From the NCBI GenBank assembly GCA_003971905.1, contig RSEE01000010.1:620001-684000 (forward strand): a stretch of 64,000 nt of DNA, read 5' to 3'. Of the stretch, positions 13,611 to 20,143 are shown one piece after another. The translations under genes were made by a program, and so were the position numbers. The notes under the pieces are model-generated. The model saw nothing but the letters and a program-made list of their open reading frames with translations, was not told where the DNA came from and searched no databases. This DNA comes from Moniliella sp. 'wahieum' (lineage: Eukaryota). Within the stretch, counting starts at the first letter, position 1. The number at the start of each line of letters is the position of its first letter.

Positions 13611-15442
13611 TCAAGCCAAAGTAGCAGCGGAGCGAACTCGACCCACCTGCTTACTGTGGGGATTCCTGTCCCGGCAGGACGGGACAGAGGAGATGACGGA
13701 GTGAGGGCTAGACGTGGCCTCCCGGGTGGGAGGACCCGTGGCATGGGCATGCGCCCACGCTCGTTCTTGCGCATCGGACCGGTTGGCTTCGGCCACCCGG
13801 GCACGGATGGCGCGCGCAAGGAAGAACGTTTGCTGTCGCCGTGCCTGCGCACCTTGTTCTGCCCCCCGAGCGAAGCAATGGCGGGGATTGTGTCCCACGC
13901 GTTGGTATACTTCATCTTGCTGGGTATTCCCGAGGATTGCGGAGGCGCAGGTACCGATGGCGCAGTGGGGGCAAGATGGGTTAGTTTCGGTTTCGGTTTC
14001 GGATCCAGGTTCGGCGAAGAAGCGATCTTCCGGGAAAAATCGGGTTGCCTTGGGTGGCTGAGCCATCTCCTACCGACGGTGGGGCACTTGCCCCTTATGC
14101 TGGGGGGGCTCCTTGTCGTCCGGAGGAGGAAGATAGGCCCCCCATTGGTCACCTTGAGTGGCGGCTAGGTGTTCCAGCATGTTCAATTGACGTAGACGGT
14201 GTTGAATTTCCAATTCGGCCCGGTGCCGTGCTTGCGCCTCGGCTGGTCTCGGTCGCGCTTAAGTTATCCCAAGCATTATGGAGCTTGTGCTGGGCCAAGT
14301 CGGGCGGTGCTTGGACCCCGCGAGAAGGTGGGGAGTGGGTCGGAGCATGCCACGCTACTGTGGGGGCTTCAAAAGAAGGTTTGGGTCTCGCCGCCAAGGG
14401 AGGCGCCTCCGGCTGGGTAACGCTTTGGCAAGAGCGTCTTTTGCCCGGGAGAGGAAGAGAAAGGTAATTGTTCAGCACAGCCTTGTCTGTTTGCTCTTCT
14501 ACGCTCCATGGGGCTGGGGCAGAGATGAAGCTTGACCCAAGGCCAATGGATCAGGGTCGGGACGTGCAGCAACGTAAGTCTGCCACCAGGTGTAAGAGCG
14601 TGGAAAAGTCGCTTGCCAGCGGGGCCGAAGTGGGGAGGGACGGCTTGCTTCCCTGTGCGGCCGGATGGGAGGCAGATCAAACCAGGGTTTGTGAGCCGAT
14701 AAAATGAACCGCATATACCTCCTGACTGAATCGATTCCAGGCAGGCGAATACGTATAGCCGGAGGTGGGGGTCACATTGTAAAGGAAACTCAGTCGTTCC
14801 CATTTGCCCTCGGCCTCGAAAAATCGTTGAGCAATCCTTGGTCGGCACCGTCCCACGAAGGGTGGCTGAACGCATACGCCGCGATAGCTGCAAATGTCTT
14901 CTCCGACGGTTGCAATACCATCAGGCCCGAGTTGAACGAATCAGGCCAGCCAGCATCAGGCGCAGGGCAACGGTAGTCGGGGCCAAAGGCAGGGAAAGGA
15001 GATGGTCAGGGAACGAAGCGGTAAGATATCGGCATCAATGTAAACGATTTGCTTGTACATGGTCAAGCGCCAGGCATGGACTTTGGTCATGGGTGCGCCT
15101 GCGTCACCGAGGTCAGGCCGATCAAGGGCGGCGAGGTTGCGCGCCTCTTCGGCTGCCAAGTGCGTTGCACGGCTGGAATGGGTGACGCCAGGGCCGACAG
15201 GGAACGCAAGCTGAGGGGCTCGACGCCTACCACAAGGTCGAATGCCGCTCGGAGCGCGTGCTGAGTTGCGGGCTGCAGCGTTGCAGGTGTGGCGAGGACA
15301 GCAATGTCGAAGCGAGAGTGGCCACGGGAGCGAGGGCGTGGGCGAGGGCAAGAGCGCCGGCAGCATAGGCGTCGGAGGTGACGAGCGTTACAAACGCCAC
15401 GTCGGCTGTGGGGGGCGCAGCCAGCGGCGTGTCTGCGGGCAT
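13611..15442 (-). CDS. Glycogenin (glycosyltransferase family 8)
   Basis: AFVTLVTSDAYAAGALALAHAL, LAALDRPDL..TKVHAWRLTMYKQIVYIDAD, APDAGWPDSFNSG, SWDGADQGLLNDFF and C-terminal YTNAWD; multiple frameshifts. Confidence 0.9.
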
Positions 15443-15745
15443 GGTAGGGAGCGGGGAGGTGGTGGTGGGGCGGGTGGTGGCATGTGGGGGGAGTTGGCCC
15501 ATCGCTCCATCGTTATCACCTGCGTGATGGATGAGCTCGTGAGACAGGACGTGTGATGCCCGCCACAGCCGCCACTGCCCCCTGCGACCCCCCACACGGC
15601 GGGTGTGGGCCACAGGGGGGTCACGTGCGCCGTCACGTGGCTCGTGACGCGTGGGCTGTGTGGATGGGAACGACACAACAGCGCAGCCGAGCGCGCGGGA
15701 CGTCTGCTGCTGCCAACGCCTCGTCCCCTCGGCTGGCATACAAGC

Positions 15746-17335
15746 ATGCCCGCTGTGCGCTCCCCCCGTGTCGCTGCGCCCGCCCAACTCGAGCTCCAGC
15801 CCACGCTCCCCCCTCCCTCAAAAGCCAGCCCACCGCCGCCCCCAGCAGCAACGACGCCGAGGCGCTGGCGCTCGCCACCACCACCGCCCTTCACCCGCCC
15901 TCCCCCCCCCCCCCCCCCTGCCGCCCTCTGCGCCCCACTGGCCGCTCCAAGGGCCGCGCGGCCACCGAATCGCTCGTGGCCGAGACCAAGCGTGTGCTCG
16001 CGTCTCGACCCGCTTGCCTCGCAGCACCACCCGCGCCACCGCCCGCGTCGCTCGTCCTTGGCCGGCTCGGAGAGGTGGCGGATACGCTGCCGGCACCGAG
16101 CCTGGCTGCCTTCAAGGCGCAGCTGCTGGCTCGCTCTGCGCCGCCCCCCGCCGCTCTTCCTCCCTGGCGCGGCGGCGGCCAGTGCAACCGAAGACGATGC
16201 CGCGTCGGCGGCGCATGTCGACTGGCCTATGTACCGCGACTGGCCCGAGGGGCTGCTGCTGGAAGAGGAAGCGATCCACGCCTATTTTCAACGGCTCAAG
16301 TTTATCTTTTTGGAACAGGCCACCAAACTGACCTTTTTGAACGATTGCCATGAAGACCCCGACACGGGCAAAGAAGGCGTCGTGCACAATCCCGCTTCTG
16401 TTCGCGAGCTGGAAGAACGCGCGGCTCAAGCCAAGGAGAGCTCGCCCAGGCCAAGCCCAAGTGCGAAACTTACGCAAGGAGATTGATCAGCAAGTTGCCG
16501 CCCTCGCCCGACCTTGGGCTCAGCTCGAAGCCGAGGCAAGCGAAGCACGCACCCTCGTTGCCGAGTTGGCCGATATGGAGTTGGAGCTGGCCAAGATTCG
16601 CGCCACCTCGGGCCGGGCACGCCGGCGCAGTTCGGCGCCGGTCGGGCCAGTGGCATTTTCCCTCTTTCATCCGACGCATCTCAACCCAAGGAAGAAGAAG
16701 ATCCAGACGAAGAGGATGCCCTTCCTGGTACAGCAGATGTCGACGCGACCGTTCCACCTCCCGTCGGGACCTTGACCGTTGCTGAGCCGAGGCATTCTGC
16801 GAAGCCCAATTGGAGCGGATGCAAGTCCTTTCTTCCGAGACGGAGCGACTCCAGAGCCAGACCAAGGAGGCCGAGACCGCGCTCAAGGCGGCGCTTCGTC
16901 GGGCCGAACGTAAGGCAGCCGAGCGCAAGCAGCATGAAGCCAATCTGGAGGAAATGCGGGCCGGAGCGCGGGACTTGCGGATCGAGGAGCTGTGCACCTC
17001 CCGTACCTCCCTCCTCGCTTTGCTCCGCTCAGCCATGGGCGTGGAGGAGGTGGAGGTACCTGCGCCCAATGAACTCCACGTGACATACTCAATTCCTCAA
17101 GAGACGAGAAAAGTCAAACTTGTCCTCACTATGGACCGGGGGGAGCAGCTCTCGATCATTATTGCGTCGTCGATCCCACGGACGATTCCGATACGCCTCT
17201 CGACCCAGAGCAAGTCGCTTTGCTCGATGCTGCCTCCGAGGCCAATCAGACGGCTGCCTTGGTGCACAACCTCTGGGCGGCTTGCCTCTCGAATTCGGTC
17301 AAGGCCTAGCTAGCACTGCTAAGATTCTGTTGTGA
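15746..17335 (+). CDS. Kinetochore protein Sos7-like (Spc7/KNL1-binding, coiled-coil)
   Basis: EEEAIHAYFQRLKFIFLEQATKLTFL resembles the Sos7 LKFxY(V/L)EQxTKxxFL motif; it is followed by long coiled coils and a compact C-terminal domain. Confidence 0.7.
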
Positions 17336-17482: not shown

Positions 17483-18301
17483 TCAAGTGCTCGTTTCAGT
17501 TGTTAGACGTCTCGCATCAACCTCAGCCTGTTCGCGTCGAAGCTCGTTTTGAACCGCCTTGTGTTCCTCCGAGGCCTTGGCCGACTCTTCGATTTCCTCT
17601 TGCACCAATTCGGGGTGGGTGACGGCGTGCTTGTGTTGGATCTTGCGCTCCAGCTCGTAAAAGCTCTTCATGACGGGGTCCATGATCATGTCCACCGGGT
17701 ACATCCGATCGATGGCCTGGTCCAGCTCCTGTTTCTTGCGCTGCGCAGGTGTCAAGCGCGCCGCTTCGGCCTTGGCAGCCGCTTGCTTTGCCTCTTCGTC
17801 CGCAGGGAAAAGCCCCAATCGGTCGGTGTTCCATTCGTCCCGCGTTACCGCCGGCCTCAAGGCGGCAATCTTCTTTTGGCGAGCTGGAGGCGTTCCCGAT
17901 ATCTTCCAGCGCATCCCCATACAGATCATACACACACACGGACATCCCGACATGCAGCAGTCGCCCGGGCCAGGCGGGTTGGGTGGCGTGGGCAACTTGA
18001 TGTTCCGCACCCACACCGGTGGCGCATTCGTTGCCCCCACAGCCGGGTTGTACCCGCCGCTGGAAATCTTTTCCTCCTTGTCGGCTTCGGCGGCAGGCGG
18101 TTTGGCCTCGGCGCGCAAGCGAGGCCACCGGTCAGAAAGATTGAGCCGGCGCAAGCGCAGAGCTATAGAGTTGTGTCACAACAGAACAAAACCACAAAAC
18201 AAAAAACAAAATCACATGCCCGTTAGTCATCTTTATTGCTTAAACGAGGGAGGGGACCAATGCGCACTTTGGTCCTGGGGTAAGGTGTGGAACTTGCGCA
18301 T
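17483..18301 (-). CDS. Oxidoreductase-like domain protein (OXLD1/UPF0651-like), possibly the C-terminal part of a COQ8 fusion
   Basis: IKLPTPPNPPGPGDCCMSGC-VCVYDLY motif and C-terminal MDPVMKSFYELERKI. Intron 18163-18267 (GTGCGC..CTAAC..TAG). Confidence 0.85.
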
Positions 18302-18394
18302 CTGCCCGGAACCGCAAACGTGTGGAGCCCTCGGGTTGCCGCGACCGAACCAGGCCGGGGGGCAGAGAAGCTGCGCGCTGCCTCGCCTTGTGGG

Positions 18395-20143
18395 TTAAAC
18401 TTGTAGCCCTGTCACATCGCGCCAAATGTCACCGCAGGCACTTGGGCTTCGAGCCGCGCGCAGAGCAGGAAGGCACCACTGAGCTTCCGGTTCAGCGAGT
18501 AGGTTTCCGGGGGCGGAGGGGTTTTGCGTTCCCGCAGCATGAGAGGGATGTTGCCACGGACTTTGTCGGTGATATCCTGGCCGGCAAAGTTGTAGGTTGC
18601 GCCGGCAGCGGTGCGGAAGGGGGTGCCGAGCAAGACCATCGAGTCCACGTGTGCTTCCACCATGGCTGGCGACTCTTCACCGGTAAGATAGCCAATCTTG
18701 CGAGACCAATAAGCGCACGCTTCCCGCTCGCCGCTGATGGCAGCCTGGAGCAATCGCAGCCACAAATCAATAAACCGTTGGCTGTACTCGCGCGTCGCAC
18801 CAAAGTCAATCAGGCCGACCCGCTCCTGCACCGGGTCCCAGAGAAAGTTGGCATAGTTTGGGTCCGTCTGCATCGTTCGCCATTCAAAGAGCTCGAGCAA
18901 AGCGAGACGCATAATGGCTGAAGCTAAAAGGTTGCGTTGTTCTTGGTCAAGGGGGCGGAACCTCCTGCGGCAGCAGCACGAGCCAAAGGAAGGCCAGGGA
19001 CAAACTCGGCGGTCAACACATCCTTTGTGCTCAGTCCGGGCACCACACGCGGTACCGAGAAGATTTTCCGGCTCCCTTGGGTCGGATTCGACCAGGTGGC
19101 GCACCCGCTCCCCCATTCGCGCTTCTCGCACATAGTCACACTCATCCACCAATTCTTCGGCCATCACCTTGAGCGACGATTCGAGAAACAGGCCCGGAGG
19201 CAAGAGAGACGAGGCGGTCAGGAGCCATTTGAGGTACCCCAAGTCCGAATCGATGCTTTTCCGAACGCCGGGGAATTGGACTTTGACAGCAACTTTGCGG
19301 CCACGAAGCCGAGCAGCGTCCTGCTCGGTCGCCACACCCAGTTCCTCTTTGGTCGCATGATGACTCAGCACAGCACGATGCACTTGCCCAATGCTGGCCG
19401 CCGCAAAGGGCTGGAGATCAAACTCGGCAAAACGATGTTGCCAGTCATCGCCCAGCTCACGAGTGAGCACGGCGCGAAGCTGAGCTTCAGGCATAGCGTG
19501 TGCGCTGGCCTGCACACGGGCCAGCACCTGTTCGAGCGGCCCGGGCATGTCGGGACGCACTTGGATGGAGAGAAACTGGCCCACCTTGAGCGCCGCACCC
19601 CATCGTTGACAGCCGGTCGACCAAGCGGCGCATGTTGCTTTCGCTCATCCACCGGCCCCGCCCGTGCTTCCAGACACAGCGGCGCCCATGGCGCCCCAGG
19701 CGAGGCCGGCGCCGAGAGAGCCGTAGTGGAGCAGACGGCCAAAGCGGGAGGCAGGCATGCGCGCCGTCTTGAGTGGCGTGGCACCAGCATGATCGGGAAC
19801 AGGCGTGGACGGGGCAGGCGTAGCCGCAGGCGAGGGCGACGCGGCCGCAGAGAAGCTGGTGGACGTCGCTGCTGGTGGGGGGGGTGGCGGTGGGCGGCCA
19901 GCAGCGGGGGCCGAGGGATGGGGCGGGAGCGGTGCAGATGAGGGTGGCAATGGAGCGGGAGGAGACGGAGAGGGAGGAGACGGAGGAGGAGACGGAGCCG
20001 AGGGAGCCGAGGGAGCCGAGGCGGCAGAGGGGCAGAGGGGCAGCCGAAAGAGACGACGGAGGCAGCTGGAAGCGGAGGCTGCGCTGTGCGATCTGAGCCA
20101 GCGCGCCGCCCACCACCACCGCTTCGGCTGTGCTGGGAGGCAT
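18395..20143 (-). CDS. COQ8: COQ8/ABC1 (ADCK3/4-like) atypical mitochondrial kinase
   Basis: PASRFGRLLHYGSL, LKVGQFLSIQ (KxGQ), PFAAASIGQVHRA, VAVKVQFPGV, ECDY, MQTDPNYANFL, LIDFGATREY, PPPPETYSLNRKLSGAFLLCARL. Confidence 0.95.

Follow-up and report, generated by a model that had tools for sequence, protein, structure and literature searches.

A fused COQ8–OXLD1-like reading frame with a presequence-like linker in Moniliella sp. 'wahieum' and Ustilaginomycotina fungi

The locus and its reading frame

The window analyzed here is a stretch of 64,000 nucleotides from Moniliella sp. 'wahieum' (GenBank assembly GCA_003971905.1, contig RSEE01000010.1, positions 620,001 to 684,000 of the forward strand), and all coordinates refer to it. 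Its minus strand carries the coding part of a COQ8 gene, followed by a linker and an exon coding for an OXLD1-like protein (Table 1). The linker exon is spliced in frame to this second exon via a phase-1 intron, which the initial annotation had not included. Small indels are abundant in the window copy, so that no single frame spans the gene. The COQ8 part matches PF03109 with an E value of 9e-46 and exhibits the kinase-like motifs LKVGQ, AAASIGQV, VAVKVQ, DECDY, QTDPN, and IDFG. It groups with COQ8 orthologs and has the COQ8A fold in common with them: the model of the Ustilago maydis ortholog matches human COQ8A with a TM score of 0.92 by target. The other ABC1 gene in this genome is just 37% identical.

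A Sec1-family gene (PF00995), which we take to be VPS45-like, starts on the plus strand at about 20365, some 220 bp from the COQ8 start codon, and forms a divergent pair with COQ8 in which the common promoter region is very short. On the other side, a convergent gene at approximately 15745-17313 (plus strand) shows a weak match to the kinetochore protein Sos7 (PF20882, 31.7 bits) and is likewise broken by indels. Further fragments at approximately 14500-15500 (minus strand) presumably derive from a glycogenin-type glycosyltransferase, judged by their motifs; two open reading frames (ORFs) from this region gave no match to Pfam. Neighbors common to the window and the three fusion-bearing metagenome loci (L012-L014) were not found.

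Table 1. Coordinates of the features of the COQ8–OXLD1-like gene in the window.
Feature	Position	Strand	Remarks
COQ8 (UbiB/ABC1 atypical kinase), coding part	18397..20143	-	ATG at 20143; ends with the YKF codons (18405-18397); broken by indels
Internal linker	18268..18396	-	about 130 nt; basic, acid-poor, rich in Ser/Thr/Ala; in place most likely corresponding to the former presequence of OXLD1
TAA	18395..18397	-	possible COQ8 stop of the initial annotation
RGLHT	18319..18333	-	candidate MPP (R-2) site; conserved as R-x-[FLIM]-H-[TS] in the motif comparison of relatives
Junction intron, phase 1	18163..18267	-	105 nt; donor GTGCGC, acceptor TAG; between the motif and exon 2
AATAAA	18237-18232	-	intronic, immediately upstream of the branch site; shared by the two local copies
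Branch site GACTAAC	18228-18222	-	in the junction intron
Exon 2, OXLD1-like protein	17483..18162	-	stop TGA at 17485-17483
NLSDRW	18142	-	exon 2 landmark
CCMSGC	17959	-	exon 2 landmark
C-terminal helix DPVMKSFYELERK	17680	-	exon 2 landmark

The same genome holds a second copy of the locus (L002), which is 99% identical to the window copy. In the window, the sequence can be read without a stop from GYKF to RGLHTFA, with 72 nt and hence an intact frame between YKF and RGLHT, and the 32 nt from RGLHT to an ATG at 18301 are one base short; the stop-free gap followed by a single-base shift that the initial annotation had described is thus present. In the second copy, one frame (...AQVPCGDIWRDVTRGYKFNPQ...) runs from the C-terminal helices of COQ8 through GYKF without a stop. 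Its single shift lies at 18357, leaving 71 nt between YKF and RGLHT (one base short), and downstream of this site RPGSVAATRGLHTFAGSGQMRKFHTLPQDQ is read in one frame (33 nt, in frame). Between YKF and the ATG, each copy is thus shifted only once and at a site of its own, and the open frames overlap by 15 codons. Since most indels between the copies are not multiples of three (12 of 13 in the COQ8 coding part, four of five in exon 2), we read the frame shifts in both copies as assembly errors. In the second copy, two extra bases at 18409 put the TAA at 18397-18395 out of frame, so that COQ8 is not terminated there; the closest relative (P0001) likewise reads through at this position. The ATG at 18301 was considered as a separate start and rejected because a methionine occurs in just 11 of 36 linkers, at scattered places.

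These findings confirm that the COQ8 and OXLD1-like parts belong to one fused reading frame that is real and conserved. This conclusion does not depend on the argument of the initial annotation that the gap is too small for a terminator and a promoter. The fusion with a presequence-like linker, as proposed in the initial annotation, is borne out by the second copy, by database proteins carrying both domains, by a stop-free frame in metagenome DNA (L014), and by the conserved linker motif. A search with the broken OXLD1 frame of the window as query had retrieved none of 6536 longer candidate proteins, which the proteins carrying both domains later revealed as a false negative.

The copy number of another gene differs from that of the fusion. 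The NDUFV1 locus occurs four times in this genome (L092, L093, L094, and L096 on contigs C2, C50, C38, and C9), arranged in two pairs with about 94% identity within and 85% between pairs, whereas the COQ8 fusion is represented by two copies that are 99% identical. This pattern suggests a hybrid or a mixed assembly in which one subgenome has been partly lost.

Distribution of the fusion among fungi

The initial annotation had recommended a search for the combined ABC1 and Oxidored-like architecture in related fungi. Among the best 120 of 563 COQ8 relatives, 33 carry PF03109 and PF09791 in one chain, and all 25 of these with an organism name are Ustilaginomycotina, for example U. maydis (UMAG_02464). 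The genera include Ustilago, Sporisorium, Pseudozyma, Kalmanozyma, Melanopsichium, Testicularia, Thecaphora, Violaceomyces, Tilletia, Tilletiaria, Meira, Exobasidium, Parajaminaea, Sympodiomycopsis, and Malassezia. Malassezia and Tilletiaria were placed in this subphylum by taxonomy look-up, and we take the remaining genera to belong to it as well.

The length of the COQ8 tail was measured from the RKLSG anchor, which is present in 116 of these 120 relatives (the four others were left out). The tail ends within 58 residues in 64 of the 116, 61 of which stop no more than 42 residues past the anchor, and extends for at least 60 residues in the other 52. In a quick tree of 61 sequences, all 30 fused or long-tailed representatives, including the window gene, form one clade (SH-aLRT 97); the long branch of the window gene is partly caused by its off-frame stretch.

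Outside this clade, COQ8 and the OXLD1-like protein are separate proteins. The Cys motif was detected in only one of 139 further COQ8 representatives (Ustilago loliicola), and in raw metagenome DNA three of 80 OXLD1-like loci have COQ8 directly upstream, while 77 are without a COQ8 match; at least 1 kb of upstream DNA was available at 51 of the 71 loci with a locatable motif. One of the three fused loci (L014) can be read from COQ8 into the Cys domain as a single frame devoid of stops, and the 956-aa chain of U. maydis recurs on many Logan contigs. The simplest reading of this distribution would be a single origin of the fusion in the ancestor of the group. Several other COQ8 models carry extra parts (P0121, P0035, P0149, P0174, and P0178). 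In U. loliicola, COQ8 is joined to the Cys domain without the linker and without the C-terminal helices, and DSBA, Es2, PAPA-1, or RhoGEF domains were found in one further model each; all of these are probably merged gene models.

A literature search, conducted mostly outside of subscription journals, retrieved no description of a COQ8–OXLD1 fusion. It is absent from the list of composite precursors in section 10 of a paper on the subject (PMC8734313), in which neither COQ8 nor Ustilago is mentioned. A preprint on domain fusions of COQ proteins used COQ3-7 and COQ9 as seeds, and its main text does not mention OXLD1, Ustilago, or Malassezia (10.64898/2026.07.16.738879). The pairing of ABC1 and Oxidored-like domains is, however, already visible in public annotations.

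The linker and the OXLD1-like partner

The linker varies between 18 and 112 aa among relatives, and a motif resembling a cleavage site of the mitochondrial processing peptidase (MPP) is retained despite this variation. Within 55 residues after the end of COQ8, the strict pattern R-x-[FLIM]-[HS]-[TS] is found in 40 of the 52 relatives with long tails; 47 of them fit a looser pattern. Shuffled linkers yielded the strict pattern 1.3 times on average and at most six times, although this control overstates the signal because the relatives are not independent of one another and the patterns were defined once the sequences had been inspected. Elsewhere in the proteins the strict pattern is rare, with 0.8% of 260 windows from the kinase core and none of 103 windows from the OXLD1 part. 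The ten residues from the motif arginine onward are 20% basic and 1% acidic. The five relatives that miss the looser pattern comprise one with an acidic linker (P0005), two with the near matches RGVHT and RYFHN (P0006 and P0016), one with KALFHT (P0051), and a frameshifted copy of the latter type (P0086). The initial annotation had listed three MPP-like motifs, of which only RGLHT occupies the conserved position; neither RSFS nor RKFHT was accepted as a conserved site, as the closest relative has RGLHT alone.

An origin of the linker can be proposed from the OXLD1 proteins that are not fused. In Tulasnella, Mucorales, and metagenome fungi, the stand-alone OXLD1 protein begins with a presequence that is followed by the same NL-x-x-R-[WYF] motif, and the linker of the fusion is therefore most likely the old OXLD1 presequence. 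Taken together, the motif and its position make internal cleavage by MPP at the junction quite probable. Several observations have to be weighed in this estimate. Arg5,6 has two R-2 motifs, one of which is unused, and its internal cleavage required a strong N-terminal presequence (PMC8734313). None of 34 COQ8 N-termini has a motif of the R-x-[FLIM]-[HS]-[TS] type within its first 55 aa. At classical R-2 sites the +1 residue is aromatic; this holds for just 25 of the 47 motif-bearing linkers, where leucine or isoleucine is often found instead, and the window has leucine. The weak-looking COQ8 N-terminus and the exceptions found in Malassezia (see below) would count against certainty.

The identity of the partner is clearest in the second copy, which scores 61.5 bits against PF09791 (cut-off 24), compared to 12.8 bits for the broken window frame. 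A profile search of this genome revealed no separate PF09791 gene above the cut-off, and weak matches elsewhere were dismissed as Pro-rich noise (L006-L009 inspected; L010 and L011 left out). The cysteines of the CCxSGCxxC motif are invariant in the OXLD1-like part. When solved structures were searched with a profile of this part, the one clear match was to chain o of 7ZM7, 7ZMB, and 7ZMG, with an E value of 2.9e-9 over the Cys domain only, and P0043 as a lone query reached 5.2e-5. Chain o is Ct-NDUFV3, an accessory subunit of complex I from Chaetomium thermophilum (PMC9699679, Table S5).

The C-terminal helix motif was identified in 34 of 36 fused proteins, and at a threshold of 10 bits its profile picked up the matching motif in 23 of 71 stand-alone loci (reverse-strand controls: none of 71). 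As a lone query, the 47-aa C-terminal piece matched neither Ct-NDUFV3 nor mammalian NDUFV3. Three metagenome loci of the ascomycete type (L046, L069, and L076) bridge both C-terminal motifs with [VI]PVGIKAFME, a sequence similar to the Chaetomium C-terminus. Fold searches with the OXLD1-like part produced no hit at an E value of 0.001 and otherwise generic helices (Z of 5.7 or below), and an Atlas search returned PF09791 clusters only, with TM scores below 0.3 for the structure entries.

As the only relative of solved structure is Ct-NDUFV3, the partner appears to point to complex I rather than to coenzyme Q synthesis, and binding of the freed OXLD1-like product to complex I is somewhat favored by this homology. 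It would be a guess to assign the contact to the C-terminal helix. The subunit is absent from complex I of Yarrowia lipolytica (PMC9699679), and the NDUFV3 site is partly occupied in Drosophila, where it may be regulatory (PMC10036122). Human OXLD1 is imported and processed in dependence on the membrane potential (PMC8664129). Complex I genes are present in the organism studied here, whose own genome contains NDUFV1 (PF01512) loci, although these copies too are heavily disrupted by indels. Budding yeast retains the OXLD1-like gene YPL107W though it is devoid of complex I, and the family may therefore have a further job beyond this complex.

A candidate processed precursor and its alternatives

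The model we favor starts from an old fusion, probably in the ancestor of the Ustilaginomycotina, that placed a whole OXLD1-like gene with its presequence and first intron in frame behind COQ8. One mRNA would then give rise to one precursor of roughly 600-1100 aa (in the relatives, this is seen at the DNA level), which the N-terminus of COQ8 would direct into the matrix. There, MPP is predicted to cut within the linker at R-x|[FLIM]-H-[TS], in keeping with the conservation of the motif, and to release COQ8 for coenzyme Q synthesis and an OXLD1-like protein that most likely, by homology to its Chaetomium relative, takes the NDUFV3 site at the tip of complex I. As a whole, this explanation is in our judgment reasonably probable. 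The fusion would mean joint import and synthesis in a 1:1 ratio, and it does not imply a common pathway; known MPP-processed tandems often join unrelated proteins, as exemplified by Atp25 (PMC8734313).

Alternatively, the fusion might remain uncut in all or some lineages, and its OXLD1-like end might tether COQ8 through a disordered linker to complex I or to another partner, which would couple coenzyme Q synthesis to the main consumer of its product. The arginine at -2 is absent from Malassezia globosa (KALFHT), Malassezia pachydermatis (SARLYT), and L014 (VARLHT), and the linker of this lineage (P0051, P0017, and L014:3311-3400) is very short at just 18 aa; processing in this lineage may differ from that in the others. 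In the AlphaFold model of the U. maydis chain, the COQ8 fold ends near residue 674 and the motif lies in a weak helix (710-730) between stretches of low confidence (688-710 and 730-825), and the OXLD1-like helices follow a disordered spacer of about 95 residues. PYURF and RTN4IP1 also provide precedents for factors common to complex I and coenzyme Q synthesis (10.64898/2026.07.16.738879). A plain tether, however, has no need of the presequence-type motif that is present in 40 to 47 of the 52 linkers, and COQ8 and OXLD1-like proteins are separate outside the clade. We therefore regard an uncut chain as rather unlikely. Its most specific form, in which the chain stays whole in the Ustilaginomycotina or at least in the Malassezia lineage lacking the arginine and holds the COQ8 ATPase on complex I through its NDUFV3-like end, is improbable on the present sequences. 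If it did apply, coenzyme Q synthesis would be covalently tied to the enzyme by which coenzyme Q is reduced, and OXLD1 proteins in general could be the missing coupling factor between the two.

A second possibility accepts cleavage but assigns the released OXLD1-like product to coenzyme Q synthesis, where it might, for instance, act in the COQ complex as a redox module or as a module with a metal bound by cysteines. A link to coenzyme Q had been hinted at in the initial annotation, where the fusion itself was its support. The retention of the fusion across a subphylum and the invariant cysteines are consistent with such a role. On the other hand, the sampled data contain a single fusion event, the literature search found no paper naming both COQ8 and OXLD1, and the only relative of solved structure sits on complex I. 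Human OXLD1 has been tied to effects on complexes I and V, with coenzyme Q unmentioned in the parts of that study consulted (PMC12413873). The proposed link was thus not upheld, and we consider a role in coenzyme Q synthesis unlikely.

Two main products might also be generated at the RNA level, with intron retention or intronic polyadenylation yielding a short-tailed COQ8 and only the spliced form adding the OXLD1-like part; such a scheme can coexist with MPP cleavage. The junction intron occupies a conserved phase-1 position, with counterparts at the matching site of L012 (65 nt) and L013 (64 nt), and in the window it contains an in-frame stop and the AATAAA sequence, a possible early poly(A) signal that would give COQ8 alone. 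The M. globosa cluster includes 605-aa fused ORFs (five sequences, 15 contigs) as well as 449-aa and 161-aa ORFs that are broken at the intron position, and both types occur on contigs of about 3 kb. Such ORFs would be expected from the spliced and the unspliced form of a single transcript, in which case one spliced mRNA would span both parts. The unspliced forms may nevertheless represent plain genomic contigs or pre-mRNA, and the intron is absent from Ustilago, L014, and the P0002 cluster despite the presence of the fusion in all of them. RNA processing as the main source of two products accordingly receives a low probability.

That two adjacent genes were merged by assembly errors or gene predictors alone is extremely improbable and already largely refuted: the linker is frameshifted in both local copies, M. 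globosa MGL_1006 stands at NCBI as a 120-aa protein of its own, and the COQ8 models of Malassezia cuniculi, M. pachydermatis, and Jaminaea rosea are given there without the OXLD1-like domain, yet the shifts lie at different sites in line with the general error rate, L014 and the recurrent U. maydis chain are continuous, and several short gene models stop just beyond the intron position, where these NCBI models are probably cut.

The processed precursor we favor has consequences for annotation and experiment. Annotated genes of Malassezia, Jaminaea, and other fungi have probably been cut short or divided where the junction intron lies, and a knockout of the whole COQ8 gene in fungi that carry the fusion would eliminate a second protein along with COQ8. 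The number of recorded mitochondrial precursors with internal cleavage is small, and those covered in PMC8734313 stem from ascomycetes and rice. The COQ8–OXLD1 fusion spans a basidiomycete subphylum that includes the genetic model U. maydis and is thereby directly testable. It also provides a handle on the poorly understood OXLD1 family, which it connects with COQ8 at the genetic level and with the NDUFV3 site of complex I.

Compared with known systems, the first part of the chain is a typical COQ8. It has the ABC1 domain and kinase-like motifs of COQ8, Coq8, and COQ8A (ADCK3; PDB 4PED, 7UDQ, and 9TVK), shares the fold of COQ8A with TM scores by target of up to 0.93, and is about 45% identical to the human protein; unlike other COQ8 proteins it has a C-terminal extension of 200-400 residues, which among the relatives examined occurs only in Ustilaginomycotina. 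The second part resembles Ct-NDUFV3 in the order of the PF09791 Cys motif and a following helix and in a similar C-terminal helix motif. Ct-NDUFV3 is, however, a stand-alone protein of 380 aa with its own presequence, and complex I binding of the smut protein is proposed by homology. Human OXLD1 (C17orf90) belongs by name to the same Pfam family and stands alone. The closest parallels for the chain as a whole are the MPP-cleaved tandems Arg5,6 (S. cerevisiae; arg-6 in N. crassa), Atp25, and Rsm22-Cox11 of S. pombe, together with Etp1, SPAC22A12.08c, and RPS14 of rice (PMC8734313). COQ8–OXLD1 differs from these in its partners, in the status of its cleavage as a candidate drawn from sequence, in the frequent leucine or isoleucine in place of an aromatic +1 residue, and in the intron just past the motif in several lineages. 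It agrees with them in joining two matrix proteins in one frame through a presequence-like segment with an R-2 motif, an arrangement that has been kept across a fungal lineage.
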